From: an uncultured Bacilli bacterium
Lineage (GTDB): Bacteria > Bacillota_I > Bacilli_A > RF39 > UBA660
DNA length: 64,000 nucleotides
Assembly: GCA_944372545.1 (NCBI GenBank)
Contig: CALVZO010000002.1
Location: 4,538-68,537 of the forward strand
Reading direction: 5' to 3'
Positions within the stretch are counted from its first letter, which is position 1, and every line of letters begins with the position of its first letter. This document shows positions 3,395 to 64,000 of this stretch, one piece after another. Under the pieces are notes generated by a model. That model was not told the origin of the DNA. It did no database searches and saw nothing but the letters and a program-made list of their open reading frames with translations. The position numbers and the translations under genes were made by a program.

Positions 3395-4480
3395 ATGAAA
3401 AAAATTATATTAACTGGTGATAGACCTACAGGAAAATTACATTTAGGACATTATGTTGGTTCTTTAAAAACAAGAGTTAAACTACAAAATAGTGGTGAAT
3501 ATGATGAAATTTATTTAATGATCGCTGATAGTCAAGCCTTAACTGATAATTTTGATAATCCTAAAAAGGTTAGAGATAACGTTTTAGAAGTTGCTTTATT
3601 TTATTTAGCATGTGGAATAGACCCAAAGAAAACAAATATATTTATTCAGTCCCAAATTCCTGCCTTAACTGAATTAACATTTTATTATATGAATTTAGTT
3701 ACTGTTTCAAGATTATATAGAAATCCAACAGTTAAACAAGAATTAAATTTAAGAGGGTTTGAAGAAAGTATTCCATCAGGATTTTTAAATTACCCAGTTA
3801 GCCAAACTGCTGATATTACCGCATTTAATGCAACAACTGTACCAGTGGGAGAAGACCAATTACCAATGCTTGAACAAGCAAGAGAAATAGTGCACTCATT
3901 TAATCGTATATATGGAGATACTTTAGTAAGTCCAAAAGAATTACTACCAGATAGTAGTTATGCTAAAAGACTTCCTGGAATTGATGGCAAAGCCAAAATG
4001 AGTAAATCGCTTAATAATTGTATTTATTTAGATGACTCTGATGAAGAAATTAATAAAAAAGTAATGCAAATGTATACAGATCCTAATCATATTAAAGTAA
4101 GTGACCCAGGACAAATTGAAGGTAATGTCGTATTTACTTATTTAGATGTTTTCTCTACTGAAGAACACTTTGCTAAATATTTAAGTGATTATAATAACTT
4201 AGATGAATTAAAGGCTCATTATCAAAAAGGGGGACTTGGTGATGTTACTATTAAGAAATTCTTAAGTAATATTTTATGTGAAATTATTAGTCCAATTAGA
4301 AATGAATATAATAAATTAAAAAATAATTTAGATTATGTTTTAGAAGTTTTAGAAAATGGAACAAAAATCGCTAATGAAAAAGCAAATGCGACTTTAAAAT
4401 TAGTGAGAAAAAGTATGGGCATAGATTATTTTGAAAATGAAAATTTTAAAAAAGAAATGCAAGAAAAATTTAAGAATTAA
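3395..4480 (+). CDS. trpS: Tryptophan--tRNA ligase
   Basis: Class I HIGH-type motif GKLHLGHY, VPVGEDQ and KMSKS. Length and N-terminus GDRPTG fit TrpRS rather than TyrRS. Confidence 0.85.
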   Translation: MKKIILTGDRPTGKLHLGHYVGSLKTRVKLQNSGEYDEIYLMIADSQALTDNFDNPKKVRDNVLEVALFYLACGIDPKKTNIFIQSQIPALTELTFYYMNLVTVSRLYRNPTVKQELNLRGFEESIPSGFLNYPVSQTADITAFNATTVPVGEDQLPMLEQAREIVHSFNRIYGDTLVSPKELLPDSSYAKRLPGIDGKAKMSKSLNNCIYLDDSDEEINKKVMQMYTDPNHIKVSDPGQIEGNVVFTYLDVFSTEEHFAKYLSDYNNLDELKAHYQKGGLGDVTIKKFLSNILCEIISPIRNEYNKLKNNLDYVLEVLENGTKIANEKANATLKLVRKSMGIDYFENENFKKEMQEKFKN

Positions 4481-4548
4481 AAAAGAGATATAGAAATTAA
4501 AATAGCATTAAGTATCGTTAAATTATATTATGAAATTACAATTAAAAA

Positions 4549-4598
4549 AGGGAATATTAGAAATACATTTCCTAGTTCTAATATTTCCTTTTTATTTT
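4549..4598 (+). terminator. Rho-independent terminator after trpS
   Basis: Stem gggaatattagaa / ttctaatatttcc followed by tttttatttt. Confidence 0.7.
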
Positions 4599-4718
4599 CT
4601 ATAATTTAGATTCAATTGTTATTATTAAATTTTCTTTTTTTGCAATATTTAAAAGCAATTCAAAAACAAAATTTCTTTGACTGTAATTTAAAAAAAGAAG
4701 TGCACAGAAGTTGTGCAA

Positions 4719-4759
4719 TAAGCAAAATATGTCGTCAACGAAGACGTTAAAATAGACAA
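4719..4759. repeat. ~41-nt element containing the small hairpin CGTC-aacgaa-GACG, copy A
   Basis: taagcaaaatatgtcgtcaacgaagacgttaaaatagaca. The 25-nt core tcgtcaacgaagacgttaaaataga (4732..4756) is identical to 45645..45669. Confidence 0.8.
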
Positions 4760-4910
4760 AAGTATGTTTCACACATACTTCTTCCTGTTTAATTTAAGGC
4801 AAACCTTAGGGTTTGCTTTTAGAATATATAAGTTTATTCTAACAACTATTAAAAATAAATTGAAAAAAGTATCAAATTTTGATATTCTATATAATAGAAG
4901 AAGGTTGGTT

Positions 4911-7319: not shown

Positions 7320-7331
7320 TATAATAGGCGT

Positions 7332-7520
7332 AGCAGTTGAGAAAAGAGTAGTAATAGTTTAGAAATTTTATAGAGAGTTAGTGGTTGGTGCAAACTAATA
7401 ATTAATAAATTATGAACTTGCTTTTTGATGTATTAGGGTAGTTCCTATAAAGACTAAGAGTGTGAATTAAGGTGGTACCGCGGGGAAACTCGTCCTTTGG
7501 TTATCGCCTTTTTTATTTAG
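7332..7520 (+). promoter_or_regulatory. T-box leader, Leu-specific (specifier CUU)
   Basis: TTGAAT (7297..7302), 17-nt spacer, TATAAT (7320..7325). AGAGAG bulge and distal GGUGCAAAC. GAA-CUU-G at 7414..7420. T-box aattaaggtggtaccgcgg at 7465..7483, then a terminator with a U-run. UGGU matches discriminator A73. Confidence 0.85.
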
Positions 7521-7528
7521 GAGGCAAT

Positions 7529-7900
7529 ATGGAATTATTAATAATATTTAGTTTAATTTTCTTAATTGTTTTTATCGTATACTATATGATTTTAAAAAAT
7601 AATTATTTAAAAAACAATAAGAAAAAGAAGAAAAAGAAAAATGATGTTACAGAAATACTTTATTTAGTTAGTAAATTTAAGTTAAAGAAAGAAGATTTAA
7701 TTAATAAAAAGATGTTTATAATAATTTCTTTATTAAATGCTTTTATAATTTCTATAGTATGTACAATTATATTTTTAATTGATACACCATTTTATATAAG
7801 ATTAATAATTGGTTTTGTTCTTCTATTTGCCCTCATATATGCTTTATATGAATTATTAGGAAGATATTTAGTGAAAGTAGGTAGTGATAATGAATTTTAA
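7529..7900 (+). CDS. Small membrane protein (123 aa; about 3 hydrophobic helices and a K8 run) located between the T-box and leuS
   Basis: AGGAGG RBS 5 nt upstream of the ATG at 7529. Hydrophobic segments are present. Overlaps the leuS start. No homology recognised. Confidence 0.5.
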   Translation: MELLIIFSLIFLIVFIVYYMILKNNYLKNNKKKKKKKNDVTEILYLVSKFKLKKEDLINKKMFIIISLLNAFIISIVCTIIFLIDTPFYIRLIIGFVLLFALIYALYELLGRYLVKVGSDNEF

Positions 7901-10277
7901 AAATTATGAAAAAAAATGGCAAGAAATATGGGAAGAGAAAAATGTATTTCATGCCTTAAATGATAGTGATAAGAAAAAATATTATATTTTAGTAGAGTTT
8001 CCCTATCCATCTGGGAGTGGACTACATGTAGGTCATGTTCGCAGTTATACAGCGCTTGATGCTTATGCAAGAATGATGCGAATGAAAGGGTATAATGTTT
8101 TATTTCCAATGGGTTGGGACGCATTTGGGGCTCCGGCAGAACAATATGCAATAAAGAATCATATTCACCCTTCCTTAGCAGTTAAAGAAAATATTAAAAC
8201 TTTTAAAAGTCAAATTAAGTCATTAGGTATATCTTTTGACTGGGATAGAGAATTTTCAACAACTGATCCGGAGTATTATAAATGGACCCAATGGCAATTT
8301 CTACAGTTTTATAAACATGGTATGGCTTATAAAGCCAAGAAAGATATTAACTGGTGTCCAAATTGTAAAACGGGATTATCTAATGAAGATTCTTCCGGTG
8401 GTGTATGCGAGCGATGTGGTACTAAAGTTGTTCAAAAAGAAAAAGAACAATGGATGTTAAAAATGAGTGATTATGCCGAATCTTTAATTGATGGATTAAA
8501 TGATACCAATTTTGCTGATAAAATTAAATTAGGTCAAATTAATTGGATAGGCAAAAGTATTGGAGCGGAAGTTTTATTTCAAGTTAAAGATACTGATAAA
8601 TCTATTAAAGTTTATACAACAAGATGTGATACTCTTTTTGGAGCAACTTTTATGGTTGTATCGCCAGAACACCCAATAATTGAAGAATTAAAGGAAAAAA
8701 TTACTAATTTAGATGAGGTTAGAGATTATCAAATAAAAGCGAAAGAAAAGACAACTTTTGAAAGAACTGAATTAGTTAAAGAAAAAACAGGAGTAAAACT
8801 TGAAGGTGTTACTTGTCTTAATCCCGTTAATAATAATGAAGTTGAAGTTTGGGTAGGAGACTATGTAATGATGGGGTATGGTACAGGAGCAATTATGGCA
8901 GTACCAGCGCATGATGAAAGAGATTACGAATTTGCTAAAAAATTTAATATTCCAATTATCAAAGTTATTGATAGTAAAGATGATACTCTTCCATATATTG
9001 GTGATGGAACGCATATTAATTCAGGATTCCTAGATGGCCTAAATAAGGAAGATGCTATTAATAAAATGTTAGAATATCTTGAAGATAATAATTTAGGAAA
9101 TAAAAAAGTTAATTATCGTTTACAAGACTGGGTTTTTTCAAGACAAAGATTTTGGGGTGAGCCAATTCCTTTAGTTTATTGTGAAAAATGTGGTTGGGTA
9201 CCAGTAAAAGAAGAAGATTTACCAGTATTACTTCCTGATGTAGCAGAGTATGAGCCGACTGATGATGGAGAAAGTCCACTTGCAAAAATCACAGACTGGG
9301 TTAATACGACTTGTCCGAAGTGTGGCGGGCACGCAAGAAGAGAAACAGATACAATGCCAAACTGGGCAGGATCTAGTTGGTATTTCTTAAGATATATGGA
9401 TCCTCATAATCAAAATGAATTTGCATCTCTTGATGCCTTAAAATATTGGGGGAAAGTTGACTGGTATAATGGTGGTATGGAACACACTACAAGACATTTA
9501 TTATATGCAAGATTTTGGAATCAATTCTTATATAATATTGGTTTAGTTCCTAATAGTGAGCCAATTGATATAAGAGTATCTCATGGTATGATTTTAGGCT
9601 CTAATAACGAAAAAATGAGTAAGAGTAAAGGTAATGTTGTAAATCCAGATGATATAGTTAATGAATATGGGGCAGATACTTTAAGAACTTATGAAACGTT
9701 TATTGGGGATTATGAAAAAGATGCTGCTTGGAGTACAGAATCATTAAAAGGTTGTAAGAGATTTTTAGATAGAGTTAGTAGATTACAAACTAAATTAAAT
9801 GATAAAAATGGGTTTACTGATGATTTCATTATTAATAAAACAATTAAAAAAGTTACAAATGATTTGCAAAATATGAAATATAATACAGTTGTATCTTCCT
9901 TAATGATTTTAACTGGTTTCTTAGAAAAATGTGAAAGTATTACTAAAGATGATTATAGAACTCTTTTATTGCTATTAAATCCAATTGCACCTCATATTAC
10001 AGAAGAATTAAATGAAGTAAACAATTTAGGAAATATGTTAGTACTAAGTGCTTGGCCAGAATATGATGATGCCAAAACAATTGATGAAGAATTAGAAATT
10101 GGTGTTCAAGTTAATGGTAAATTAAGAGGCTCTATCAAAATTAAGAAAGATGAAGATAAAGAAATTATTTTAGAAAAAGCATTAAAGGAAGAAAATGTTA
10201 TGAAACACCTAGAAGGAAAAGACATTATTAAAGAAATAGTAATACCAAATAAAATAGTAAATATTGTAGTTAAATAG
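7890..10277 (+). CDS. leuS: Leucine--tRNA ligase
   Basis: N-terminus NFKNYEKKWQEIWEE resembles B. subtilis LeuS. HIGH-type HVGH and KMSKS are present. The GTG at 7884 is an alternative start. Confidence 0.93.
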   Translation: MNFKNYEKKWQEIWEEKNVFHALNDSDKKKYYILVEFPYPSGSGLHVGHVRSYTALDAYARMMRMKGYNVLFPMGWDAFGAPAEQYAIKNHIHPSLAVKENIKTFKSQIKSLGISFDWDREFSTTDPEYYKWTQWQFLQFYKHGMAYKAKKDINWCPNCKTGLSNEDSSGGVCERCGTKVVQKEKEQWMLKMSDYAESLIDGLNDTNFADKIKLGQINWIGKSIGAEVLFQVKDTDKSIKVYTTRCDTLFGATFMVVSPEHPIIEELKEKITNLDEVRDYQIKAKEKTTFERTELVKEKTGVKLEGVTCLNPVNNNEVEVWVGDYVMMGYGTGAIMAVPAHDERDYEFAKKFNIPIIKVIDSKDDTLPYIGDGTHINSGFLDGLNKEDAINKMLEYLEDNNLGNKKVNYRLQDWVFSRQRFWGEPIPLVYCEKCGWVPVKEEDLPVLLPDVAEYEPTDDGESPLAKITDWVNTTCPKCGGHARRETDTMPNWAGSSWYFLRYMDPHNQNEFASLDALKYWGKVDWYNGGMEHTTRHLLYARFWNQFLYNIGLVPNSEPIDIRVSHGMILGSNNEKMSKSKGNVVNPDDIVNEYGADTLRTYETFIGDYEKDAAWSTESLKGCKRFLDRVSRLQTKLNDKNGFTDDFIINKTIKKVTNDLQNMKYNTVVSSLMILTGFLEKCESITKDDYRTLLLLLNPIAPHITEELNEVNNLGNMLVLSAWPEYDDAKTIDEELEIGVQVNGKLRGSIKIKKDEDKEIILEKALKEENVMKHLEGKDIIKEIVIPNKIVNIVVK

Positions 10278-10336
10278 GCAAATTTAAAATTTGTCTTTTT
10301 TAATAAATAATGTTATAAATATATTGAAGGTGAATA

Positions 10337-10771
10337 ATGAAAAATTTTAATTTAAAAATGAATATTTTAATTACTTTAAATTTACTTTTAATACTATCTT
10401 TAGGGTTAATTGGATTTTATAATATATATAAAGATAAGGAAAATAAAAAAGTAGATAATAATTTATTATATAGTATCAAAAAGAGTAATTTAAATTGTGA
10501 ACAAGTTATATTAAATATTTTTAAAGATAATACATATGAATATATTTATGAATATGATGAGTTTAATAATAAATATAGTAAACTAAAAGGTACTTTTAAT
10601 TATCAAATAGATGATATAATTCAAAATAATGAAGAAAGTAGTAATATAAATTATTTAGTAACTGATAATTTAGGAAATACTTATAAAATAGATGAAAGTA
10701 ATATTTATTTACAAGAATTTTTAGAAGAAATAAATATTAATTTAGATAATTGTTTAAAAATAATTAATTAA
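10337..10771 (+). CDS. Hypothetical membrane-anchored protein
   Basis: N-terminal hydrophobic helix and good RBS context. No motif recognised. Confidence 0.4.
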   Translation: MKNFNLKMNILITLNLLLILSLGLIGFYNIYKDKENKKVDNNLLYSIKKSNLNCEQVILNIFKDNTYEYIYEYDEFNNKYSKLKGTFNYQIDDIIQNNEESSNINYLVTDNLGNTYKIDESNIYLQEFLEEININLDNCLKIIN

Positions 10772-10822
10772 TAATTGTTATTAAAATATATATCATTTAT
10801 AATAGGAAACGGAAGTGATTAT

Positions 10823-12094
10823 ATGGAAAATGCAACTTTACTACCTGCAGATAGATATGTAGTTATTAGTAAAAGTATCTTAACAGATATAGATAGAGAT
10901 ATTATTATTAATTTATATCAACCATTAATAGGTTCTTTTGCAGTTTCCCTATATTTTACTTTATGGAACGATTTAAAAATGACTAGTTTTATGAGTAATG
11001 ATTTAATTCATCATCATTTAATGGTTGTATTAAAAAGCGGAATAAATAATATAAAGATAGCAAGAGAATCCTTAGAGGCTTTTGGTTTAATAAGAAGTTT
11101 TCTAAAAGAAGGTTCTTTAAATGAATATTTATATGAAATTTATTCACCTCTTACTCCTAGTGAATTTTTTAATCACCCGATATTAAATGTTGTTTTATAT
11201 AATAATGTTGGTGAAAAAGAATATGAAACAATAAAAAATAGATATAAAACCCCAAGATTTGATTATAAAGATTTAGTTGAAGTTACTAAGAAATTAGATG
11301 AAGTATATGATACATCTAAATTTACTTTAGCAAGTAATTTACAAGATAAAACTAGTAATAATATATTAGTTAGTGAAAGAATTAATTTTGATGAAATATT
11401 AAGTAGTATACCAAAAGGGATTATTAATGAAAAAGCCTTAACTAAAAGGGTAAGGGAATTAATTAATAATTTAGCCTTTATTTATAATATTGATACTTTA
11501 AAAATGACAGAGTTAATAAGAAGTGTATTAAATGAGTATGGTAATATTGATAAAAATGGGTTAAGAATAGTAGCAAGAAAAGATTATCAATTTAAAAATG
11601 GAACATTACCAACCCTTATTTATAGAACTCAACCAGATTATTTAAAAAATCCATTGGGAGATAATTCCAAAAGAGGAAGAATTATTGGGGTATTTGAAAA
11701 TACTTCTCCTTATGATTTTTTAAGATTTAAAAATGGAGGTAAACCAACAGCAAGAGAATTAAAATTATTAGAGAAATTAATAATTGATTTAGAATTATCT
11801 CCTGCTGTAGTCAATGTTTTAGTAGATTATGTTCTTAGAAAAAATAATAATAAATTAACGGAAGGTTATGTTGAAACTATTGCGAGTCAGTGGAAAAGAG
11901 CGGGGTTAAAAACAGCCCAAGAGGCAATGGAATTTGCGGAAAAAGAACATAAGAAAATGATTAAAAAAGAAACTTTTAAAGAAAATAAAACAAAGAGTCC
12001 AACCCCAATTTGGTTTAATCAAAATATTAAAGACGAAAATTTAAGTGAAGAAGAAGAAAAAGAGTTAAAAGAACTTTTAAAGGAGTTTAATTAA
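10823..12094 (+). CDS. dnaB: Replication initiation and membrane attachment protein (Bacillus-type DnaB, DnaD-domain helicase loader component)
   Basis: N-terminus LPADRYVVISKSILTDIDRDIIINLYQPLIG matches the B. subtilis DnaB N-terminus. Immediately followed by dnaI. Start moved to the ATG at 10823. Confidence 0.75.
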   Translation: MENATLLPADRYVVISKSILTDIDRDIIINLYQPLIGSFAVSLYFTLWNDLKMTSFMSNDLIHHHLMVVLKSGINNIKIARESLEAFGLIRSFLKEGSLNEYLYEIYSPLTPSEFFNHPILNVVLYNNVGEKEYETIKNRYKTPRFDYKDLVEVTKKLDEVYDTSKFTLASNLQDKTSNNILVSERINFDEILSSIPKGIINEKALTKRVRELINNLAFIYNIDTLKMTELIRSVLNEYGNIDKNGLRIVARKDYQFKNGTLPTLIYRTQPDYLKNPLGDNSKRGRIIGVFENTSPYDFLRFKNGGKPTARELKLLEKLIIDLELSPAVVNVLVDYVLRKNNNKLTEGYVETIASQWKRAGLKTAQEAMEFAEKEHKKMIKKETFKENKTKSPTPIWFNQNIKDENLSEEEEKELKELLKEFN

Positions 12095-12095
12095 G

Positions 12096-12977
12096 ATGGA
12101 TTTAAAAGTAGATAAGAATAAAATAAATAATGAAGTAGATAAAAATTATCAAGAAGCAATGCAAAATGAAGATTACCTAAAGTTAGTAAAAAGATTAAAA
12201 ATTAGTGAAAAAGATGCTAAAAAGAATACGATGAAATTAAATGATTCCTTAGAAGAATTAAATAATTGTAAAAATTGTAGTAGTCTATTTACTTGTCCTA
12301 ATAAAGTAAAAGGGTATGTTTATTTTCCAGAAAAGAAAGAAAGTCGTTTGATTTTTTCCTATATTCCTTGTAAATATAAGAAAAAAGCCGATAAATTATT
12401 AGAAGAAAAGAAAACTAATCAAAGTATTTTAAGTAGTGCAAGAATTAAAGATATTAAAATAACTAAGAATAGAAGTGAAATAATTAAATGGATTAAAGAT
12501 TATTATGATAATTATAATCCTTATAAAACTGATAAAGGGCTATATTTACATGGTAATTTTGGGACTGGTAAAAGTTTTTTAGTAGCATCTCTTTTAAATG
12601 AATTAAAAAATAAATATGGCATAAGGACCGAAATTGTTTATTTTCCAGAATTATTAAGAAAATTAAAAGAAGATTTAAATTTAGTTGGTGATAAATTATA
12701 TTATTTAGAAAATGTTGATGTTTTATTGCTAGATGATATTGGGGCAGAAAAAGTAACTGAGTGGGGAAGAGATGAAATACTAGGAACTATTTTACAAACT
12801 AGAATGAATAATGGAATGCCAACATTTTTTACTTCAAATTTAAATATAAATGAATTAGAAAGTCATTTAAGTCTAACAAATAATAAAGAAGATTTAGTGA
12901 AAGCAAAGAGAATTATTGAAAGAATTAAGTATTTAACTAAAGATATGGAATTACTGGGAAATAACTATCGGGAATAG
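12096..12977 (+). CDS. dnaI: Primosomal helicase loader DnaI
   Basis: N-terminal Cys-rich zinc motif (CKNCSS..CPN), Walker A GNFGTGKSF and Walker B LLLDDIGAE. dnaB-dnaI synteny. Confidence 0.85.
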   Translation: MDLKVDKNKINNEVDKNYQEAMQNEDYLKLVKRLKISEKDAKKNTMKLNDSLEELNNCKNCSSLFTCPNKVKGYVYFPEKKESRLIFSYIPCKYKKKADKLLEEKKTNQSILSSARIKDIKITKNRSEIIKWIKDYYDNYNPYKTDKGLYLHGNFGTGKSFLVASLLNELKNKYGIRTEIVYFPELLRKLKEDLNLVGDKLYYLENVDVLLLDDIGAEKVTEWGRDEILGTILQTRMNNGMPTFFTSNLNINELESHLSLTNNKEDLVKAKRIIERIKYLTKDMELLGNNYRE

Positions 12978-12990
12978 TCATTTCTTTTTA

Positions 12991-13041
12991 AAAACATTTG
13001 TTCGTTTTAGTATTGACAATTAAATTTCTTTAATGTAAAAT
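12991..13041 (+). promoter_or_regulatory. recA promoter with an upstream degenerate LexA (Cheo) box
   Basis: aaaacatttgttcg (12991..13004) compared with consensus CGAAC-N4-GTTCG. TTGACA (13013..13018), 17-nt spacer, TG + TAAAAT (13034..13041). Confidence 0.55.
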
Positions 13042-13069
13042 GGACTTATCAGAGAGTGAAGGAGAAAAT

Positions 13070-14089
13070 ATGAATAAGTCAAAAGATGTTAAGAATACAG
13101 ATAAGGCTCTTGAACAAGTATTAAAAGATATTGAAAAACAATTTGGTTCGGGGGCAATAATGAAATTAGGGGCTGACGAACATATTAAAATAGATGTAAC
13201 TAGCACTGGGTCCATTGCACTAGATGTTGCTTTAGGTGTTGGTGGTTTACCAAAAGGGAGGATTATAGAAATATATGGACCAGAATCATCAGGAAAAACA
13301 ACAATAGCACTTCATGCCATAGCAGAAGCGCAAAAATCTGGAGGAAGAGCGGCATTTATTGATGCTGAACATGCACTAGATCCTGTTTATGCTAAAAAAT
13401 TAGGGGTTGATATTAACGAACTTTTATTAAGTCAACCAGATACTGGAGAACAAGCATTAGAAATTTGTGATGCTCTAGTTAAGAGTGAAGCAATTGATTT
13501 AATTGTTATTGACTCAGTCGCGGCTTTAGTACCCCAAGCAGAAATTGATGGAGAAATGGGCGATAGTCATGTTGGCTTACAAGCAAGATTAATGTCTCAA
13601 GCCTTAAGAAAGTTATCAGGTTCTTTAAATAAAACTAATACAACCGCTATATTTATAAATCAATTAAGAGAAAAAGTTGGTGTGTTATTTGGTAATCCTG
13701 AGACTACACCGGGCGGAAGGGCTTTAAAATTTTATTCTTCAGTTAGACTTGATATTAGAAGAGGAGAACAAATAAAACAAGGAGAACAAGTTTTAGGTAA
13801 TAAGACTAATATTAAAGTAGTTAAAAATAAAGTTGCACCACCTTTTAAAACTGCATCAGTTGATATTATGTATGGTGAAGGTATTTCTCATGTTGGGGAA
13901 TTAGTAGATATTGGTAGTGAAATTGGTGTTGTTGATAAAAGTGGGGCTTGGTATGCTTATAAGGGAGAAAAAATTGGTCAAGGTAAAGAAAATGTGAAGG
14001 CATTTTTGAAAGTTAATCCCGATATTGCCGAAGAAATTGAAGATAAAATTTATGAACATTATGGTTTTACTAAAAAGAAAGAAGAGTAG
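13070..14089 (+). CDS. recA: Recombinase RecA
   Basis: GPESSGKTT Walker A and FIDAEHALD, conserved throughout. Start set at the ATG at 13070 behind GAAGGAG. Confidence 0.97.
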
Positions 14090-14205
14090 CATCTTCTTTT
14101 TTAATTAAGGATTTTATCTTGATAAATGTTTTTTTTGCGCTTATAATAAAATTATAGATAATTATATTTAATATATTTTCTAATAAATGAAAATGGAGTG
14201 AAAAA

Positions 14206-15759
14206 ATGGAAAAAATAGCCATGAACATTTTACTTCTATTTCTTGGAACATTAATTGGAGCAATTATTACTGTAATTATAAATTATATGCGGGGGGTAAA
14301 CGCCCAAAATAAGGCTGATAAACTTTTAGAAGATGCAAAAAAAGAAATTGAAAAGAGTAAAAGAGATACTCTTCTAGAAGTTAAAGAAGAATCATATAAA
14401 TTAAAACAACAAACTAATACAGAAATTAAAGAAAAAAAACAAGAGATAAAAGAAAGTGAAGAAAGACTATTAAATAGAGAAAATAGTCTTGATAAAAGAG
14501 AAGAAATATTACAAAAAAGAGATTTAGCCTTAGAAGAAAAAGAAAATAATTTATTAGTAAAACAACAAAGTTTACAAGAAAAAGAAGAAAAAATGGAAAA
14601 ACTTTTGAAAGAAGAAGTTTTAGAGTTAGAAAGAATTTCTAACTTAACTAAAGAAAAAGCGCATGATTTAATTATGGCAAGAATTGAATCAGATATGGCT
14701 TTAGAAATAGCAGAATACATAAGAGATGAAGAAGCAAAAGCAAAATTAGAAGCAAGTGATAAAGCCAAACAACTTATTGTTAGCAGTATGGAAAGATATG
14801 CTGATGATGTTGTAAGTGTTCAAACTGTATCTACTATTGAACTTCCTAATGATGAAATGAAAGGAAGATTAATTGGTAGAGAAGGAAGAAATATAAGAAC
14901 TATTGAATCAGTTACTGGTGTTGATTTAATTATTGATGATACTCCAGAAGCAATAGTTATATCTTCGTTTGATCCTTTAAGAAGAGAAATTGCCAAAAAT
15001 ACAATTGAAACATTGATAAAAGATGGAAGAATCCACCCAAGTCGTATTGAAGAAGTTTATGAAAAAGCATCTAAAGATGCATTTAATATGATAACGGAAA
15101 TTGGTAATACTGCAATTACTGATTTAGGTATAAGTAAAATGGACCCTGATTTAATTAACTTAGTAGGTAAATTAAATTTTCGAACAAGTTATGGTCAAAA
15201 TGCTTTGAAACACTCAATTGAAGTTGCTAATCTTTGTGGCTTAATGGCAGGAGAACTTGGTGAAAATGTCACTTTAGCCAAAAGAGCCGGATTACTACAT
15301 GATATCGGAAAAGCAATTGACTTTGAAGTCGAAGGAAGTCATGTTGAAGTTGGTGAACAAATTGCCAAAAAATATCATGAAAATGAAGTGGTAATTGATG
15401 CTATTACTTCCCATCATGGCGATAGAGATGCGAAATCAATAATTGCGGTTTTAGTAAGTGTAGCAGATACTTTATCTGCGGCACGACCTGGAGCAAGAAA
15501 TGATTCTGTAGAAAATTACATTAAAAGATTAGAAGAATTAGAAGAAATTGGTAATTCTTTTGAAGGTGTAGAAAAAGCCTACGCAATGCAAGCAGGTAGA
15601 GAAATCAGAGTAATGGTTAAACCTGATGAAATTGATGATGCTCGAAGTTTTCAAATTGCCAGAGAAATTAAAGATAAAATTGAAGAAGAAATGCAATATC
15701 CAGGAACAATTAAAGTTACTGTTATAAGAGAAACAAGAGCCCAAGAAGAAGCAAAATAA
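14206..15759 (+). CDS. rny: Ribonuclease Y
   Basis: N-terminal TM helix, E/K-rich coiled coil, KH domain (GREGRNIR) and HD domain (LLHDIGKA). Confidence 0.93.
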
Positions 15760-28965: not shown

Positions 28966-29036
28966 TTCCAAGTTCTTTGGAATTTTTTTATTGTAATAAA
29001 TACTTAAATAAGATAAAATTATAATAGGTGAACGTA

Positions 29037-30011
29037 ATGAATAAAGGGTTTACATTAGTTGAATTATTAGCAGCGATAGTTATATTGAGTTTAATAGTTT
29101 TAATCGCTGTTCCTAGTTATAATAGAATAAGTGATGCGATTAATAGTAATCATCGTAAAAATTTAATAAGTGATATTGAAATATCGGCATCTAAGTATGC
29201 ATTTGATACTAGTAAAACTATGATATTTGTTGATGAATTAGTAACTGAAGGTTATATTGAAAGTGATGAAGAGGGAAATATTATAGACCCAGTAAATAAT
29301 GGCAGATTAAATTGTTATATAGTGGAAATGAATAAACAAGGGGATTATTATAATGCTAAATTTATTGATGGCAAAAATTATGATAATAATGGGGTATGTG
29401 ATTTAAGTAAATTACAAGAGAGTAGTGAAAATGTTAATATTGAAGTATTAAATGGAAGTGAATTTGTAAGTGATACATCTATTTGGCTTACTGGTAGTCT
29501 TAGTTTAAGAGCGACAAGTAATACTTTAGCAATAGACTGCACTAATAATCGTTGTAGTTGGACTAGTAGTAGTGGTGCAAGTTATACAGGAACTGATAAT
29601 GTTATATTAGATAATATTAGTACTATATTAGAAACTAAATATACTTTTCAATATACAATATATGATGATAATACAAGTGAAATTAAAAGATATAATCAAA
29701 GTGTTAATTTAAAGATAGATAATGAGTCTCCTGTAATATATGAAAATGAAATAAATGTTACTAATCGTTTTGTTTATACAAGTAGTAAAAATGTTACAAT
29801 ATCAGCAAGTGATGGCAAAGGATCTGGTATTAGTGGCTATTATTTAGGGCTTTATACGGGAGAAAGTTGTAATAGTAGTAATATAGAAAGTAAATATCAA
29901 ACAAGTAATAAATTTACAATTAGTAGTAATGGTACTTATCAAATATGTGTTAAAGATAATGTAGGAAATGTTAGTAGTTATAATAGTTTAAAAATTAATT
30001 ATATTTCTTAA
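29037..30011 (+). CDS. Large prepilin-type protein (324 aa) with a C-terminal Ig-like region
   Basis: MNKG|FTLVELLAAIVILSLIV class III signal. C-terminal SASDGKGSGISGYY...VKDNVGNVS resembles Ig-like/HYR-type repeats. Confidence 0.75.
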   Translation: MNKGFTLVELLAAIVILSLIVLIAVPSYNRISDAINSNHRKNLISDIEISASKYAFDTSKTMIFVDELVTEGYIESDEEGNIIDPVNNGRLNCYIVEMNKQGDYYNAKFIDGKNYDNNGVCDLSKLQESSENVNIEVLNGSEFVSDTSIWLTGSLSLRATSNTLAIDCTNNRCSWTSSSGASYTGTDNVILDNISTILETKYTFQYTIYDDNTSEIKRYNQSVNLKIDNESPVIYENEINVTNRFVYTSSKNVTISASDGKGSGISGYYLGLYTGESCNSSNIESKYQTSNKFTISSNGTYQICVKDNVGNVSSYNSLKINYIS

Positions 30012-30087
30012 TGTAAATTAAGTTTTGAGAATTGACATTAAGACTTAATTATTGTAAGATTATTTTAAGGATAGAGGTGAATAATTA

Positions 30088-30549
30088 ATGAAAATTTTAA
30101 AAAATAAAAAAGGTTTTACATTAATCGAATTATTAGCAGTTATTGCGATACTTGCAATAGTATCAGTTATTGCAACAAGGACAGTATTTCCATATATGGC
30201 AAATGCAAGAAAAGATGCTTTTGCAACTGAAGCTAATGAAATTATTGGAGTTACATCTGATGCGATGAGTTTAATTTCTTTAGGAGAAATAAGAGATAAT
30301 TATACTATTGAACCAACTGGAACTTATTGTTTTACTTTAGAAAACTTAAGAAATTTGGGTTTACTAGTAAAAGAAGATGAAGATTATGTAGGAACTGTTA
30401 CCGTTACTGTAAATGGCAATGCTTATAGTTATGCAATATCAATGTCTAATGGAACTTATAATGTTGATAAAAGTGGTCAAATAAATGCTGATACAGATGT
30501 AAATGAAGGTGCTGGCGAAGATATTAAAACAGCATGTACTACTTCATAA
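30088..30549 (+). CDS. Prepilin-type pilin, tandem paralog 1
   Basis: MKILKNKKG|FTLIELLAVIAILAIV. Own TTGACA-17-TAAGAT promoter at about 30042. Confidence 0.8.
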   Translation: MKILKNKKGFTLIELLAVIAILAIVSVIATRTVFPYMANARKDAFATEANEIIGVTSDAMSLISLGEIRDNYTIEPTGTYCFTLENLRNLGLLVKEDEDYVGTVTVTVNGNAYSYAISMSNGTYNVDKSGQINADTDVNEGAGEDIKTACTTS

Positions 30550-30572
30550 GTAACAGGTTAAAGAGTGAAAAA

Positions 30573-31052
30573 ATGAAAAATAATAAAGGTTTTACATTAA
30601 TCGAATTATTAGCGGTTATTGCAATACTTGCTGTAGTATCAGTTATTGCTACAAGAACAGTACTACCTTATATGTCTGGTGCAAGAGAAGATGCATTTCG
30701 TATTGAAGCAAATACTGCTTTAGATAGTGCAAGAGACTACTTAGATTTATATAATTTAGGAGAACTAGATATTACTAATGATACTGAAAGTTGTAAAAAC
30801 GGAAACACAGTATGTTTATCAATTGCCAAATTAATTGATGCTGGTCTATATAACGCTGATAAATCCACTTTTACTGGTAAGGTTATGATAGATATAACTA
30901 ATGCAAATATTCCAACATACAAGTTATATTTTAAAAAGAATAATGAATTTAATATTGATGGGGGAACTGAAACTGATTATATTGATAACGGGACAGTTAA
31001 TTCTGGTACTTGGGCTAGTAATGATGGCCAAGCGGTTTGTAGTTGTAGTTAA
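30573..31052 (+). CDS. Prepilin-type pilin, tandem paralog 2
   Basis: MKNNKG|FTLIELLAVIAILAVV. The first ~80 nt after the signal are about 90% identical to the 30088 gene by eye. Start moved from 30534 to the ATG at 30573. Confidence 0.8.
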   Translation: MKNNKGFTLIELLAVIAILAVVSVIATRTVLPYMSGAREDAFRIEANTALDSARDYLDLYNLGELDITNDTESCKNGNTVCLSIAKLIDAGLYNADKSTFTGKVMIDITNANIPTYKLYFKKNNEFNIDGGTETDYIDNGTVNSGTWASNDGQAVCSCS

Positions 31053-44496: not shown

Positions 44497-45623
44497 ATGC
44501 AAAGAAGTAAAAAATTAAAATTTGTAATTATCTTATCTCTTTTTATTTTAGAATTATTATCGGTATTTCTAACAATAAAATCTTTTTCTAATAAGGAAAT
44601 AGTAGAAATTAAAGAAGAAAATAAAATAAAAAAAGAGAAATTTTCTATGTATATAGAAAATGATACAGGAGAATATACAGAATATACTACATCAGAATAT
44701 TTTCCTGTAGGGTATAATTTAAATTTAGATAAGTCCACTTGTGTAGATAGTAATGATAATACTTTAACGGGAGTATTAACAGGAACAAATAATAGTATTA
44801 CTGTTACTAGTAATAAAACTATGTTTTGTTATCTTTATTTTGATAAGGTTTCAACTGCAGGAGAAATATTTCTTGAAAGCCCAACAACAGGATTAAATAT
44901 AACAATGGAAGGTGGATTATATAGATATCAAGGAACAAGTGTAGATAATTACATATGTTTTGGAACAAGTGATAAATCGACATGTACAGGAAATACCGAT
45001 GCATATATGTATAGAATAATAGGAATCAATTCTTCTGGACAATTAAAACTAATCAAGAAAGAGTCTTTAAATAGTTCAATGCAATGGTATAGTAGTTATT
45101 CATCAAACATAACATGGCCAAATTCAACAATATACTCAAACATAAATGGAAGTAGTTTCCTAAGTAACACAACATACGTACCAAGCGGTTGGAGTAGTAA
45201 AATATCAATAACTTCATGGAAATACGGAGATAACACAACATCAAACACAACCGTAGCAAATCTATATTCAACAGAAAATGGCTGGAGTAGTACAGTATCA
45301 GCGAAAATAGGATTATGGTATTTACATGATTATTATTATGGTTTATCTGGAGGAAATAACTGTTCATCAAATTACAGTACGTGTGTAACAAGTTGGATAC
45401 ACTTATCAAACAACGATAGTGGAGCCCCATCTACAGCGGAGTGGACCATGTCGCGTTACAGTGGAAGCAGCAGTTACAGTGCGTGGGATGTGCGTTCGAA
45501 GGCGGTGTCGCTATTGACTATTTGACTGCTTCGAGTTCGGTTCGCCCAGTCTTCTATCTAACGTCCGAGGTAGAGATAGTGAGTGGAACAGGAACATCAA
45601 GCGATCCATTTATTATAAATTAA
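44497..45623 (+). pseudogene. Frameshifted membrane-anchored surface protein with a C-terminal ...SAW.V...G.V....SSVRPVFYL motif
   Basis: Two overlapping frames (…45525 and 45441…45623) join into AWDVRS-EGGVAIDYLTASSSVRPVFYL if one base is restored near 45493..45495. N-terminal TM helix. The 3' ~200 bp are about 50-57% GC. Confidence 0.65.
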
Positions 45624-45630
45624 CAGACTA

Positions 45631-45672
45631 TAAGTAAAATAAAATCGTCAACGAAGACGTTAAAATAGAAGA
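45631..45672. repeat. ~41-nt element with the CGTC-aacgaa-GACG hairpin, copy B
   Basis: taagtaaaataaaatcgtcaacgaagacgttaaaatagaaga. The 25-nt core at 45645..45669 is identical to 4732..4756. Followed by the terminator gagagatttaaaatctctc plus T-run. Confidence 0.8.
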
Positions 45673-45780
45673 CTTAACCCTTCGAGAGATTTAAAATCTC
45701 TCATTTTTATTTAATTTTTATTTAGTGCTAGTTATTTTTAGAAAATTCCATTATAATATAGTTAGTGTGGAGGTAATTAT

Positions 45781-60510: not shown

Positions 60511-60723
60511 ATGGCAAAAGAAATCAAAAAGAAAGCGAAGAAAAAAGAACAAAAAGAAAGTTTAATGAAAGGAATTAAAAAGGAACTAAAACAAGTAAAA
60601 TGGCCTAGTTTTAAAGACCTTATGAAATATACTTTGGCTACATTAGTACTATGTATTATTTTAGTTGCGTTTTTTGAGGCTTTAAATATAATTATGGCTT
60701 ATGTAAAGGGGTTATTTAACTAA
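60511..60723 (+). CDS. secE: Preprotein translocase subunit SecE
   Basis: 70 aa, K-rich N-terminus, VKWPS motif and a single TM helix. Directly upstream of nusG. Confidence 0.88.
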   Translation: MAKEIKKKAKKKEQKESLMKGIKKELKQVKWPSFKDLMKYTLATLVLCIILVAFFEALNIIMAYVKGLFN

Positions 60724-61256
60724 TGGAAAAATTATGGTATGTTGTTAATACTTATTCAGGACATGAAAGTAAAGTAAAAGAAAAACTAGAAGCAAAAATT
60801 GAGTCAATGGGTATGGAAGATCATATTTTTAGAGTGGTTATACCAGAAACAACTGAAGTAGAAGTTAAAGATGGTGCAAAAAAAGAAAAGACTAAAAAAA
60901 TGTTTCCAGGTTACATTTTAGTTGAAATGGTTATGTCTGATGAGGCATGGTATATAGTAAGAAATACGCCGGGAGTTACAGGATTTATTGGTTCAAGTGG
61001 AAAAGGTGCTAAACCAACACCATTATTACCACAAGAAATTGACCGTATTTTAGTTAATATGGGAATGAGTCGTGTTAATATAGAAGATGATTTAAAAGTT
61101 GGCGATTCTGTTTCAATTATTGATGGACCATTTAAAGGTATGATGGGTAAAGTTGATAACATTGATTCTGAAAATAATCGTTTAAATATCTTAATTGATT
61201 TATTTGGCCAAGAAACATCAGTTGATGTAGAATTATTCCAAGTTAGTAAAAATTAA
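60723..61256 (+). CDS. nusG: Transcription termination/antitermination factor NusG
   Basis: KWYVVNTYSGHE, FPGYILVEM, and a C-terminal KOW domain (GDSVSIIDGPFKG). Confidence 0.95.
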   Translation: MEKLWYVVNTYSGHESKVKEKLEAKIESMGMEDHIFRVVIPETTEVEVKDGAKKEKTKKMFPGYILVEMVMSDEAWYIVRNTPGVTGFIGSSGKGAKPTPLLPQEIDRILVNMGMSRVNIEDDLKVGDSVSIIDGPFKGMMGKVDNIDSENNRLNILIDLFGQETSVDVELFQVSKN

Positions 61257-61324
61257 AATAAAAAAGTGAAATTCAAAATAATTTGGGTTTCACTTTTTAT
61301 ATGTGTTTTAACAATTTATTTTCT
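61090..61324. repeat. Left (intact) copy of a duplicated segment: nusG 3' end, terminator and the last 9 codons of the convergent permease gene
   Basis: 61221..61324 matches 62375..62478 with 2 mismatches over 104 nt. 61090..61130 matches 62324..62365 at roughly 85%. Confidence 0.9.
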
Positions 61325-61466
61325 GTAATTCTATGAGTTAGTTTAAGATAAGTATGGTAAAAATAATATATTAAAAGTGCTCAAAAATCATATCTAAGTA
61401 ATGATAAATATAGTGGTTTGTGGTATAATATTCATATCAAATTAGAAAAGAAAGTGAGTGATTTCA

Positions 61467-61658
61467 ATGTCTAAAAGCAATTTAACTGAAAAAGAAATAC
61501 AAGAAAAAATAAGAAAAGTTGATGGCGCTATGGCGCAAGAGGGTATGCCTTTAACAAAGGAAATTAAAAAGAAATTATATGATTGTTTAACAGGAAAATC
61601 TACTTATGAAAAGGAAAGAAAAAAAATAATTGAAAAATATAGGAGAATATATGAATAG
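61467..61658 (+). CDS. VbhA-like antitoxin of a class I Fic module
   Basis: 63 aa. GAMAQEGMPLTKE resembles the (S/T)xxxE(G/N) inhibitory motif, with Ala in place of Ser/Thr. 8-nt overlap with fic. TGgTATAAT -10 at about 61421. Confidence 0.6.
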   Translation: MSKSNLTEKEIQEKIRKVDGAMAQEGMPLTKEIKKKLYDCLTGKSTYEKERKKIIEKYRRIYE

Positions 61659-62307
61659 TAAGTATAAATATACTTATGAGAAGACGGCTGATTATTGTTA
61701 TAAGGATACAGATGTATTAATAAATAAATTAAATATTACTAATGAAAAAGATTTATATAATGCAGAAAGAGAACTAGTTTCTTTAAGGGTGTCAGCGTTT
61801 AATGATAATCCTTTAAAAGGTAATTTTGATTTCGATTATTTAAAAGCTATACATAAATATTTATTTCAAGATATTTATAGATGGGCAGGAGATATTAGAA
61901 ATTGTAATATAGCAAAACAAGATTTATTTTGCTTAACTGAACATATTGAATCATTTGCAAATGATATATTTAATAAATTGAAAAAAGAAAATTATTATAT
62001 GGATTATGATTATGAAACTACGATTTTAAAATTAGTGGAATTATTCGCAGATATAAATGCATTGCACCCTTTTCGTGAAGGTAATGGTAGAAGCCAAAGA
62101 ATGTTTATAGAATCACTTGCTAAAATAAATGGTATTAATTTAGATTTAACTAATGTATCAAGTATGGATATGATAGTTGCTAGTCATGAAAGCATAAATG
62201 GACATTATGATAAATTAAATAAAATGTTTAAAGAAAACAGCCATAAAATATCTGAAGAAGAAAGATTAAAATATGTAGAACTTTACTGTTTAAATAAATT
62301 ATGTTAA
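61651..62307 (+). CDS. Fic family protein (AMPylase-type toxin)
   Basis: Canonical Fic motif HPFREGNGRSQR. Start moved to the ATG at 61651 behind AGGAGA. Confidence 0.85.
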   Translation: MNSKYKYTYEKTADYCYKDTDVLINKLNITNEKDLYNAERELVSLRVSAFNDNPLKGNFDFDYLKAIHKYLFQDIYRWAGDIRNCNIAKQDLFCLTEHIESFANDIFNKLKKENYYMDYDYETTILKLVELFADINALHPFREGNGRSQRMFIESLAKINGINLDLTNVSSMDMIVASHESINGHYDKLNKMFKENSHKISEEERLKYVELYCLNKLC

Positions 62308-62323
62308 AAATAATAAATAAGCA

Positions 62324-62478
62324 AATTTAAATGTCGCCGATTCTGGTTCAATTATTGATGAGGATATAGATAAAGTTGATGTAGAATTATTCTAAGATAG
62401 TAAAAATTAAAATAAAAAAGTGAAATTCAAAATAATTTGGGTTTCACTTTTTATATGTGTTTTAACAATTTATTTTCT
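62324..62478. repeat. Right copy of the duplication: decayed nusG 3' fragment with an ~80-bp internal deletion and a premature stop, plus the terminator and the functional permease 3' end
   Basis: aaatgtcgccgattctggttcaattattgatgagga compares with the nusG sequence aaagttggcgattctgtttcaattattgatggacca. CAA is changed to TAA at 62392..62394. Terminator aagtgaaattc...gggtttcactttt is present. Confidence 0.9.
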
Positions 62479-63239
62479 AAAATAACAATAAATTTATAAA
62501 GTATAAATGAGATAATAGCAAGAATTACTATACCACTCATTACTAAATCTAAATTAAATACTTGTTTACCATAAACAATTAGATAGCCAATACCTTGTTT
62601 ACTTACTAAAAATTCCCCCATTATTACACCAATTAAAGTTAGAGAAATATTTAGTTTAAGACTAGTTATTATAGTTTGATAACTACTAGGTATTACTAAT
62701 TTTGTTAAAATTTGTAAATTACTTGCGTTCATTGACTTTAACAATTTAATTTTATACTCATCTGTATTTAAAAAACCATTATAAATACTTAATATACTAG
62801 TAATTAAATTAATTAAAAGAGTCATTAGAATAATACTTTTAACATTGGCTCCACATATTATTATAATAAGTGGTCCAAGCGCTACTTTAGGAAGGGAATT
62901 TAACATAGTTAGAAATGGATCTATAATTTTGGCAAGCATTTTAAATTCATACAAAATTAGAGCAGTTATAAACCCTAGAGTTATACCTAAAATAAATGAT
63001 ATAAATATTTCTTTTAAAGTAACATAGATGTGAATGAAAAAATTATTATTTTGAATTAAATTAGTAATTGTTTTAAATATTCTTGATGGACTAGAGTAGA
63101 TAAAACCATTTAATATTTCATAATTTACTAATAGTTCCCATAACGAAAGAAATAAGATAACTAATAAAATTTGGAAGAAAAAAATTAATTGTTTTTTTCG
63201 TTTTTCTTTTTTTAAAAACTCTTTTTGTTTATTACTCAT
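62451..63239 (-). CDS. ABC transporter permease (NitT/TauT-like binding-protein-dependent family)
   Basis: 6-TM protein with an EAA-like loop region. 8-nt overlap with the upstream ATPase gene. Confidence 0.75.
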   Translation of the reverse strand: MSNKQKEFLKKEKRKKQLIFFFQILLVILFLSLWELLVNYEILNGFIYSSPSRIFKTITNLIQNNNFFIHIYVTLKEIFISFILGITLGFITALILYEFKMLAKIIDPFLTMLNSLPKVALGPLIIIICGANVKSIILMTLLINLITSILSIYNGFLNTDEYKIKLLKSMNASNLQILTKLVIPSSYQTIITSLKLNISLTLIGVIMGEFLVSKQGIGYLIVYGKQVFNLDLVMSGIVILAIISFILYKFIVILENKLLKHI

Positions 63240-63978
63240 TTTTATCTAAATCCTTCCAAATTAAATCAAAATAAGTATTATAATTTTCATCTTTTCTTCT
63301 TATATAAACATCTTCTTTATTTTTAATATCAATTGGAATTATCTTTTTTATTTCTGTTGGTCTTTTAGATAAAACAATAACTTTATCAGAAAAAATAATG
63401 GCTTCTTCAATATTATGAGTAACTAAAATAACTGTTTTCTTTTCCTTTTTAATTATTTTATAAACATCATCACTTATAAGTAAACGTGACTGTTGATCGA
63501 GAGCACAAAATGGTTCATCAAGTAGTAATAAATCTGGTTTTAAAGCAAGAGTTCTAATTAAAGCAACTCTTTGTTTCATACCTCCCGATAAACTTTTTGG
63601 ATATTTATCTTTAAAATCATATAAATTATAAGTTTTTAGTAAGTTATCAACATAAAGAATATTTTCTTTTGTTAATTCATTACTAATTTTTAACCCTAAA
63701 ATAGCATTTTCATAAATAGTCAACCAAGGAAATAGAGCATCACTTTGTAACATATATGCAATTTTTAAATCCTTATTTTTGATTATATTTCCAAAGTAGT
63801 CTTTATCTAAACCGGCAATAATCGATAATATAGTAGATTTTCCACAACCAGAAGGTCCTACTAGTGAAATAATTTCTCCTTTATTAATTTCTAAATTAAT
63901 ATCTTTTATTGCTTCTATTTCTCCTTCTTTGGTATGATAATTTTTCATTAAATTCTTAATTTCAATAACATTATTCAT
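63232..63978 (-). CDS. ABC transporter ATP-binding protein (NitT/TauT-like)
   Basis: Walker A GPSGCGKST, signature LSGGMKQR and Walker B LLLDEPF. Confidence 0.88.
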   Translation of the reverse strand: MNNVIEIKNLMKNYHTKEGEIEAIKDINLEINKGEIISLVGPSGCGKSTILSIIAGLDKDYFGNIIKNKDLKIAYMLQSDALFPWLTIYENAILGLKISNELTKENILYVDNLLKTYNLYDFKDKYPKSLSGGMKQRVALIRTLALKPDLLLLDEPFCALDQQSRLLISDDVYKIIKKEKKTVILVTHNIEEAIIFSDKVIVLSKRPTEIKKIIPIDIKNKEDVYIRRKDENYNTYFDLIWKDLDKNE

Positions 63979-64000
63979 ATAAATTATTTACCATATCATT

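Follow-up and report, generated by a model that had tools for sequence, protein, structure and literature searches.

What brings a toxin-antitoxin (TA) cassette that encodes no enzyme for its own movement to rest between two long copies of a chromosomal gene junction? The question is raised by the 64,000-nt stretch of DNA analysed here (the window), which belongs to a 0.9-Mb, 41-contig short-read metagenome bin, 90% complete, of an uncultured gut Bacilli genus. In this window, an insert comprising a promoter, a 63-aa antitoxin candidate and a Fic gene lies between nusG and a convergent gene for an ATP-binding cassette (ABC) transporter permease, and the end of nusG, the terminator and the end of the permease gene occur on both sides of the insert (Table 1). 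The locus is an insertion with long target duplication that carries a new type of cargo, FicTA. Taken as a whole, it is best explained as a horizontally acquired FicTA module that is now stranded, flanked by a duplication and fixed by host recombination, an account that we regard as probable. An earlier note, made from the sequence alone, had described a foreign, recombinase-less Fic cassette at the nusG/permease junction, a description that is borne out by the distribution of the cassette and by its gene content.

The duplicated nusG/permease junction

The borders of the repeats were set by comparison with the closest cassette (locus L032), gapped local alignment and repeat mapping. The left copy runs from the final 166 nt of nusG through a 40-nt spacer, which forms a bidirectional terminator, into 28 nt of the permease gene, namely the stop codon, eight codons and one further nucleotide, which are non-functional in this copy. 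In the right copy, the nusG fragment (62326-62406) has decayed, and it is followed by the terminator and by the 3′ end of the permease gene, here functional. In the local alignment, 62326-62360 is identical to 61091-61125 at 31 of 35 positions; the following 94 nt of the left copy (61126-61219) correspond in the right copy to 13 nt of unrelated sequence, a net 81 nt having been lost; and 62374-62478 agrees with 61220-61324 at 103 of 105 positions (98%), one of the two differences turning a nusG codon from CAA to TAA, an in-frame stop in the right copy. The earlier note had placed the copies at 61090..61324 and 62324..62478, with a deletion of ~80 bp and the CAA-to-TAA change, and the alignment reproduces this anatomy within 1-2 nt; the exact borders, for which the note had proposed a self-comparison, lie at 61091-61324 and 62326-62478. 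Its description of a right nusG copy that decays yet supplies the real permease 3′ end is likewise confirmed by the alignment, and it was correct that permease codons form part of the repeat, although it counted nine of them rather than the stop codon, eight codons and one nucleotide found here.

The decayed nusG fragment matches the nusG of this genome at 41 of 50 positions, compared with at most 34 of 50 for the nusG of any congener. The duplicated DNA is therefore native, and a foreign source of the duplicated nusG piece was rejected. A two-age mosaic of the repeat (11% versus 2% divergence), considered as proof of a crossover point, was also rejected as not significant, because the first 15 nt were reassigned to the cassette and because the terminator/permease end is subject to selection.

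Besides this species, the genus contains 41 others; the neighbourhood of nusG was fetched from 20 of these, and the sequence after nusG could be read in 19 of them. Three congeners (G023, G020 and G008) provide the empty site that the earlier note had suggested looking for in relatives: nusG, terminator and permease gene follow one another in one piece, the permease gene abuts nusG, and the two stop codons lie 30-60 bp apart with the terminator alone between them. Because the repeat sequence is single and uninterrupted at these sites, the duplication consists of target DNA. Of the 20 congeners, 13 had ABC genes within the fetched downstream sequence; the operon converges on nusG in 11 of them and is inverted in G003 and G006. 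In the 19 congeners readable there, rplK never follows nusG. The earlier note was thus mistaken in holding that the cassette had displaced rplK-rplA, since the ABC operon already faces nusG where the site is empty; that rplK-rplA do not lie behind nusG is characteristic of the genus and owes nothing to the cassette.

In other species, 0.5-2.8 kb of unrelated cargo separates nusG from the ABC operon. This cargo encodes a Bro-N protein (G001, G009 and G017), a UDG-family protein (G010), a YunG-like protein (G011), a prolyl-tRNA synthetase (G018), membrane proteins with an XRE-type helix-turn-helix (G007 and G017) or a 715-aa protein of unknown function (G013). The nusG/ABC-permease junction is therefore a genus-wide cargo hotspot. 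In G013, a 214-nt duplication (94% identical overall, with ~170 nt identical) that comprises the terminator and the last ~54 permease codons flanks a 2.7-kb insert containing the 715-aa open reading frame. Its borders and cargo differ from those in the window, and it is a second, independent event of the same design; among the congeners examined, a permease fragment beside nusG was found in this genome and in G013 only.

Since a short-read bin in 41 contigs can mislead, it was considered that an 81-nt exact repeat had led the assembler to thread a separate molecule, or the allele of another strain, into the nusG locus, and a Logan contig (L105) does end within the repeat. Collinear contigs from five other samples, 99.4-100% identical to the window, contain the whole arrangement or part of it, and three of these independent assemblies (L104, covering 60625-64000; L107, 61190-63002; and L108, 61270-62846) cross both unique junctions. 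Furthermore, an assembler could not have created the decayed nusG fragment, and G013 shows the same design with repeats that are just 94% alike. An assembly artefact, which the earlier note had named among the findings that would overturn its account, is thus excluded as far as assemblies show, and we give it hardly any credence. The insertion is real, old and fixed.

Table 1. Features of the window at and around the insertion, with the carrier element of the closest cassette.
Feature	Position	Strand	Remarks
nusG, intact	60723..61256	+	177 aa; Pfam NusG (2.2e-30) and KOW; protein 88-95% identical to the nusG of congeners
Left copy of target duplication	61091-61324	.	234 nt; local alignment and comparison with L032
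Terminator hairpin, left copy	61261-61298	+	17 pairs, then a T-rich tail; serves nusG
FicTA cassette insert	61325-62325	+	1001 nt; promoter, antitoxin candidate and Fic
Cassette promoter	61401-61429	+	ATGATA-17-TGgTATAAT with TG extension; 10/12 matches, best in the region
Antitoxin candidate	61467-61658	+	63 aa; motif DGAMAQEGMPLT; stop codon overlaps Fic start
Class I Fic toxin gene (by sequence)	61651-62307	+	218 aa; active-site motif HPFREGNGRSQR; Pfam Fic (1.4e-13)
Right copy of target duplication	62326-62478	.	153 nt; local alignment and comparison with L032
Terminator hairpin, right copy	62415-62452	+	same 17-pair hairpin; now terminates both the Fic operon and, on the opposite strand, the operon of the ABC genes
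ABC transporter permease gene	62451..63239	-	convergent with nusG; Pfam BPD_transp_1 (1.7e-19)
ABC transporter ATPase gene	63232..63978	-	operon partner of the permease gene; Pfam ABC_tran (3.2e-31)
G058 element region	L097 (G058:C1) 3834-15602

The FicTA cassette and its candidate antitoxin

The two TA genes are the only genes of the insert, which contains no integrase, transposase or other mobility gene. The earlier note had recognised between the copies about 1 kb with its own extended -10 promoter, a 63-aa gene and a canonical Fic gene, and all of these were recovered. The TGnTATAAT box of the promoter is kept in nearly all aligned related loci. The insert has no terminator of its own and the operon reads into the duplicated nusG/permease terminator, so that transcription would start at the extended -10 promoter of the cassette and end at the duplicated terminator. 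The stop codon of the small gene overlaps the Fic start by 8 nt (ATGAATAG).

Judged by its sequence, the Fic protein is a class I Fic toxin. Its active-site motif, HPFREGNGRSQR, is intact and fits HxFx(D/E)GNGRxxR; its matches in NCBIfam are VbhT (3.5e-42) and E. coli Fic (1.8e-38), and those in the PDB are 8wt0 (5e-30) and VbhT 3shg (1.7e-28), as well as VbhT 3zc7 and E. coli FicT 5jff (1e-24 to 5e-30). From knowledge of the family, the toxin would AMPylate an essential target. In characterised FicT toxins, the target of AMPylation is GyrB/ParE. Among the 65 loci that were found in related genomes (see below), Fic is frameshifted or truncated in 16 (L077, L079, L081, L082, L084-L089 and L091-L096), and the small gene was detected in 14 of these 16.

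Wherever the 5′ end of Fic is present (62/65 loci), the small gene accompanies it. The conserved block of its product reads DGAM(A/S/T)QEGMPLT; within the motif AMAQEG, Glu and Gly are invariant in 17 aligned members, and position -4 is mostly Ala, with Thr in L041. An AlphaFold model of the 63-aa protein contains three helices (predicted local distance difference test score, pLDDT, 80), with the motif in predicted helix 1. The protein would hold Fic inactive by inserting the invariant Glu into the ATP site, as in VbhA and FicA. The cassette resembles VbhT-VbhA of Bartonella schoenbuchensis (3shg) and FicT-FicA of E. coli (5jff; PMC5033356, PMC5675462) in that a small upstream gene overlaps a Fic gene of ~200 aa whose product has the HxFx(D/E)GNGRxxR motif, and in that the candidate antitoxin has an invariant Glu-Gly in a predicted helix. 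Unlike VbhA, FicA and BiaA, the candidate has mostly Ala at the Ser/Thr position of the (S/T)xxxE(G/N) motif and no detectable sequence similarity to those proteins. As a single sequence it gave no match in Pfam, NCBIfam or the PDB, and a profile gave none against the PDB or Pfam; Foldseek with the AlphaFold model returned nothing significant, with the BiaA chains 5eu0_B and 5nh2_B at ranks 10 and 15 (E 6-7). None of these searches supports homology to VbhA/FicA. The label "VbhA-like" of the earlier note thus holds for gene order, size and the xxxxEG motif, but has no counterpart in sequence or profile matches or in significant fold matches, and it may serve as a reasonable functional guess. 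The small protein has at least 411 relatives, all of them without a Pfam domain or name; the locus defines an unannotated family of antitoxin candidates for class I Fic toxins in gut Bacilli.

Movement, carriers and stranded copies of the cassette

A scan of species-representative genomes identified 65 loci for the cassette, from uncultured gut Bacilli ("Tenericutes"/"Mollicutes" bins), at Fic identities of 69-96%. Homology to the window at the DNA level always covers ~61396-62301, extending in the closest copy to 61345-62325 at 93% identity, and between the different neighbourhoods of 44 complete loci homology ends at most ~100 nt before the promoter and ~30 nt beyond the Fic stop codon, whereas the neighbouring genes vary widely. 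By this measure, the cassette is a discrete unit. Fic is present in 7 of 42 species of the genus, each time on a different contig, and the nearest copies (96% and 92% identical in Fic amino acids; 93% and 90% in cassette nucleotides) occur in genomes whose permease orthologues are only 42-57% identical. Such a sparse distribution over different contigs, with near-identical copies in genomes that have distant permeases, indicates that the cassette moves horizontally. Partial copies were also encountered: a truncated Fic is fused to a C-terminal fragment of a serine recombinase in L091 (5001-5401), a second partial cassette lies 4.8 kb downstream of the first in L049 (9529-9915), and a Fic 3′-end fragment with terminator lies upstream of a full cassette in L071 (4619-4721).

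In at least nine loci, a gene for a Mob protein or a recombinase is found no more than 5 kb from the cassette, and in five of these (G058, L039, L035, L052 and L059) the cassette forms the end of an element by which a host gene is split. The closest copy to that in the window (93% of nucleotides) is cargo of a ~11-kb element in a distant genome, G058 (L032/L097). The genes of this element include a serine recombinase (Resolvase and Zn_ribbon_recom), XRE regulators and a Mob_Pre relaxase (7e-28), it has imperfect inverted ends and lies in the orthologous ABC-permease gene, which is split between G201 and V202. The element that bears the closest cassette thus has the permease orthologue as its integration target, and the permease fragment of G013 begins at the exact codon where the G058 element splits the gene. 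Homology between the 2.7-kb cargo of G013 and the G058 element was sought and rejected, as none was present. In L039, a 4.6-kb element (4480-9200) lies inside an N-acetylmuramoyl-L-alanine amidase gene, which it splits at the DxGH|GG motif with no duplication; FicTA is directly behind the left attachment site (attL, left end), and a large serine recombinase (Resolvase, Recombinase, Zn ribbon and DUF4368) lies at the right one (attR). The amidase gene is broken at the same motif on the contig of the cassette in L035, L052 and L059, and continues 8-12.6 kb past the cassette. In G099, G101 and G103, the amidase gene is divided into two or three pieces separated by many kilobases, and such additional breaks suggest that insertions are nested. 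A gene with a predicted pPIWI-associating nuclease domain (PF18165, 1.2e-37) was noticed directly after FicTA in L052 (5691-6542) and L039 (5565-6411, frameshifted).

In streptococci and other Bacillota, large serine recombinases and MobV (Mob_Pre) relaxases occur together on small integrative mobilizable elements. The closest cassettes, in the five genomes above, ride on elements of this kind inside conserved genes, where FicTA is probably a stabilisation module, and the related genomes thereby suggest that serine-recombinase/MobV elements are the source of stranded cassettes. Unlike these elements, the copy in the window has no recombinase, relaxase or element ends between its two repeats and does have a long duplication, so that it is at most a remnant or an escapee.

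Long repeats recur around cassettes outside the carriers. Flanking direct repeats (E<=1e-10) were detected at ~22 of ~58 testable Fic loci, as against 4 of 298 (1.3%) random 0.9-kb pseudo-cassettes of this genome at the same threshold. They are 40-400 nt long and consist of local sequence, usually a terminator with the end or start of a gene, and those of different loci are mostly unrelated to one another. Candidates such as parts of a mobile element or attC-like sites were rejected, because the repeats are mostly unrelated between loci and empty sites exist. The repeat of L080 (400 nt, 98%) spans the 3′ end of a uridine-kinase-like gene, a spacer and the first 42 amidase codons, and it is single-copy and contiguous, a reconstructed empty site, in at least 13 relatives. 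In six loci (L036, L047, L080, L093, L046 and L051), the left end of the insert is the attL end of the recombinase element and the right end falls 0 to 0.8 kb past the Fic stop codon; the duplication there is evidently secondary to site-specific integration. In a sample examined (L080, L036, L046, L093 and L085), the DNA from the Fic stop codon to the right repeat showed no homology to known element interiors, for which reason a two-step model is unproven on the right side.

These carriers raise the possibility that the repeats in the window are the attL and attR of an integrase element at the 3′ end of nusG that has lost everything except FicTA. Integrative elements often target and duplicate gene 3′ ends, the cassette is elsewhere cargo of recombinase elements, and in L079 it lies between 49-nt duplications of a tRNA 3′ end. 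The copy in the window abuts both repeats with 0-20 nt to spare, however, and the large serine recombinases of the carriers split genes with no long duplication. The repeats are judged not to be att sites: they contain no tRNA and no shared core, the event in G013 at the same junction has different borders, and the repeats at other loci are unrelated local sequences. A decayed island of this type is, in our estimation, very improbable. A recombinase supplied in trans may have acted on the repeats.

Routes to a duplicated target

Units of this architecture have been described for restriction-modification genes. Furuta, Abe and Kobayashi (2010; Nucleic Acids Research 38:2428, PMC2853133) reported restriction-modification units flanked by long target duplications of variable length, from >30 bp to ~420 bp. 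The inserts contained no other mobile element, the site was empty in a related genome and the repeats often spanned start or stop codons; most cases came from naturally competent species, the mechanism was unknown, and DNA breakage by the restriction enzyme was suspected to play a role. The term "insertion with long target duplication" has been on record, as cited in that paper, since Nobusato et al. (2000; Gene 259:99), and nearly all of its use in the papers searched concerns restriction-modification. The locus in the window has every defining feature of the class except the type of cargo: a unit of <20 kb with no mobility gene, flanked by direct repeats of >30 bp that are single-copy at the empty site of relatives, that span gene ends and that differ in length between events, and a cargo of the addiction type. 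The earlier note had not placed the footprint in this class, although it was right in considering the duplication too long for the target-site duplication of a transposase, an origin that is excluded. Two differences from the published cases deserve attention. The cargo is FicTA here and an AAA_14/DUF4143 gene elsewhere in the genome, so that DNA breakage by the cargo cannot be required; and the same cassette is also cargo of serine-recombinase elements, whose end coincides with the left end of the insert in six relatives. A class whose mechanism was never worked out, and which was tied almost only to restriction-modification, is thereby extended to a TA cassette, for which cutting of DNA by the cargo is unnecessary.

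The second footprint in the window is a 61-nt direct repeat (93%) at 458-518 and 1840-1899, with an insert at 519-1839. The repeat comprises the last two codons with the stop (GAATAG) and a terminator, and it flanks a lone AAA_14/DUF4143 ATPase gene (646-1845) located between a deacetylase-like gene and a convergent murE-like gene.

Given that the footprint and the empty site are established, as are the cassette's foreign origin and its carriers in other genomes, the order of events and the enzymes involved may be pictured as follows. A small integrative mobilizable element with a large serine recombinase, and usually a MobV relaxase, would have brought the cassette in. The cassette alone would then have been fixed by host recombination, through one or two illegitimate joints together with one or more crossovers within the nusG-terminator-permease stretch. 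This event may have been of the ends-in (Campbell) type or one-sided homologous, and either would leave both flanking genes whole and the site duplicated; the useless nusG copy would have decayed afterwards.

Several observations speak against this account. No empty site was seen in the same species, contigs from other samples included, and no circle or excision product was seen in the assemblies. The left joint lies ~21 nt inside the left arm of the cassette family and at permease codon 253/254, which is neither the site of the recombinase (201/202) nor near any att-like motif; consequently, if the insert descends from a permease-integrated element at all, a further deletion is required. The 20-nt filler at 61325-61344 shares 11 nt with the permease sequence by the G058 element, a match that was judged to be chance, because its orientation is wrong and the filler aligns with the left arm of the family. 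No Mob_Pre was found in this genome, and its two serine-recombinase homologues (on contigs C14 and C22) are ~24% identical to the enzymes of the carriers. DprA (PF02481) was not found in the 90% complete genome and natural competence is unproven; ComEC is present (C3:5881-6615), and pseudopilin genes lie at ~29000-31050 of the window. Finally, the functions of toxin and antitoxin are inferred, that of the antitoxin from its gene context and one motif, with no relationship to VbhA/FicA in sequence or profile searches.

Campbell-type insertion-duplication, by a non-replicating circle with homology to the chromosome, is a laboratory tool in Bacillus and Streptococcus. The end product is the same as that in the window, an insert between two copies of the target, and genes that end inside the cloned piece stay intact. 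A single RecA crossover by a circle that consisted of the cassette and a 234-bp copy of the nusG-terminator-permease stretch would therefore fit the topology exactly, with the duplication as the patch of homology and both genes intact. Units flanked by repeats can also loop out as circles and re-enter empty sites, and the footprint recurs with different patches at many sites. In contrast to the laboratory procedure, the natural source of a chimeric circle is unexplained, as is the first joining of the cassette to a copy of each new target; the nusG/permease patch occurs in none of the 65 other loci (0/65), no circle was observed, and such a circle would have no function for replication or transfer. 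The junction expected of it would join the right-copy variants CTAAGAT to ...TTTTCTGTAATTC; the signature of a circle or tandem would run from the right-copy ...TTCTAAGATAG... into ...TTTTCTGTAATTCTATG, and that of the empty site from ...TTCCAAGTTAG... into ...TTTTCTAAAATAAC. Integration purely of this kind is a possibility to which we incline less than to its opposite. The single crossover of a circle proposed in the earlier note is consequently compatible with the footprint, but it is one of several routes, and neither a circle nor a patch-bearing copy was found. A Campbell circle, a one-sided homologous event with an illegitimate joint, and template switching give the same product and are not separable here.

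Template switching, of the type of microhomology-mediated break-induced replication (MMBIR) or fork stalling and template switching (FoSTeS), would have required the strand to leave at 61324, copy the ~1-kb cassette and return 234 nt behind its point of departure. No prior link between cassette and target is needed, and the process yields duplications of variable length, as seen (28-400 nt), and cassette ends that are not at fixed positions. The complex internal joint in the right copy, where the 13 odd nucleotides lie between two TTGATG microhomologies, can be read in its favour, although later decay explains the internal gap equally well. Microhomology at the two joints of this genome is 1 nt or not assessable, however, and at the six other loci the left end of the insert is the end of a recombinase-borne element and not random. 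On balance, we consider template switching unlikely.

It is also tempting to speculate that long target duplications around addiction modules are the scars of a rescue and not the product of a special insertion mechanism. An element would integrate in a host gene and later be lost, or the gene would be repaired from a sister chromosome or from transforming DNA; post-segregational killing would then spare only those recombinants that restore the gene yet keep the TA pair. Survivors would be products of one homologous crossover and one illegitimate joint just past the toxin gene, by which the target would become duplicated. Such a history would explain why six related loci combine attL-exact left ends with right ends that are ragged at the Fic stop codon, why the published cases involve restriction-modification systems, likewise addiction modules, why the duplications span gene ends, and why events cluster at genes that are targeted by elements, as exemplified by the start of the G013 fragment at the split codon of G058. 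We put this idea forward tentatively, and would not yet expect it to prevail. As a concrete hypothesis, duplicative repair enforced by addiction is testable against the natural series formed by the relatives, which range from intact gene-splitting elements through stranded cassettes whose duplications are fresh (98% identical) to old, decayed copies such as that in the window.

Two further repeats were noted in this genome. On contig C23 of G000, genes for an IS110-like transposase and a 647-aa ATPase lie between direct repeats at 552-686 and 4986-5203, which consist of a terminator and the 3′ end of a convergent 131-aa gene and differ by an 80-nt indel; this is a further cargo unit enclosed by duplicated DNA of local origin. 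A dispersed repeat family of ~0.8-1.1 kb (76-83% identity) is present in at least six copies in the 0.9-Mb genome; one lies at 44548-45717 of the window (G000 C2:49085-50254), and others are found on C3, C19, C20, C41, C16 and C11.

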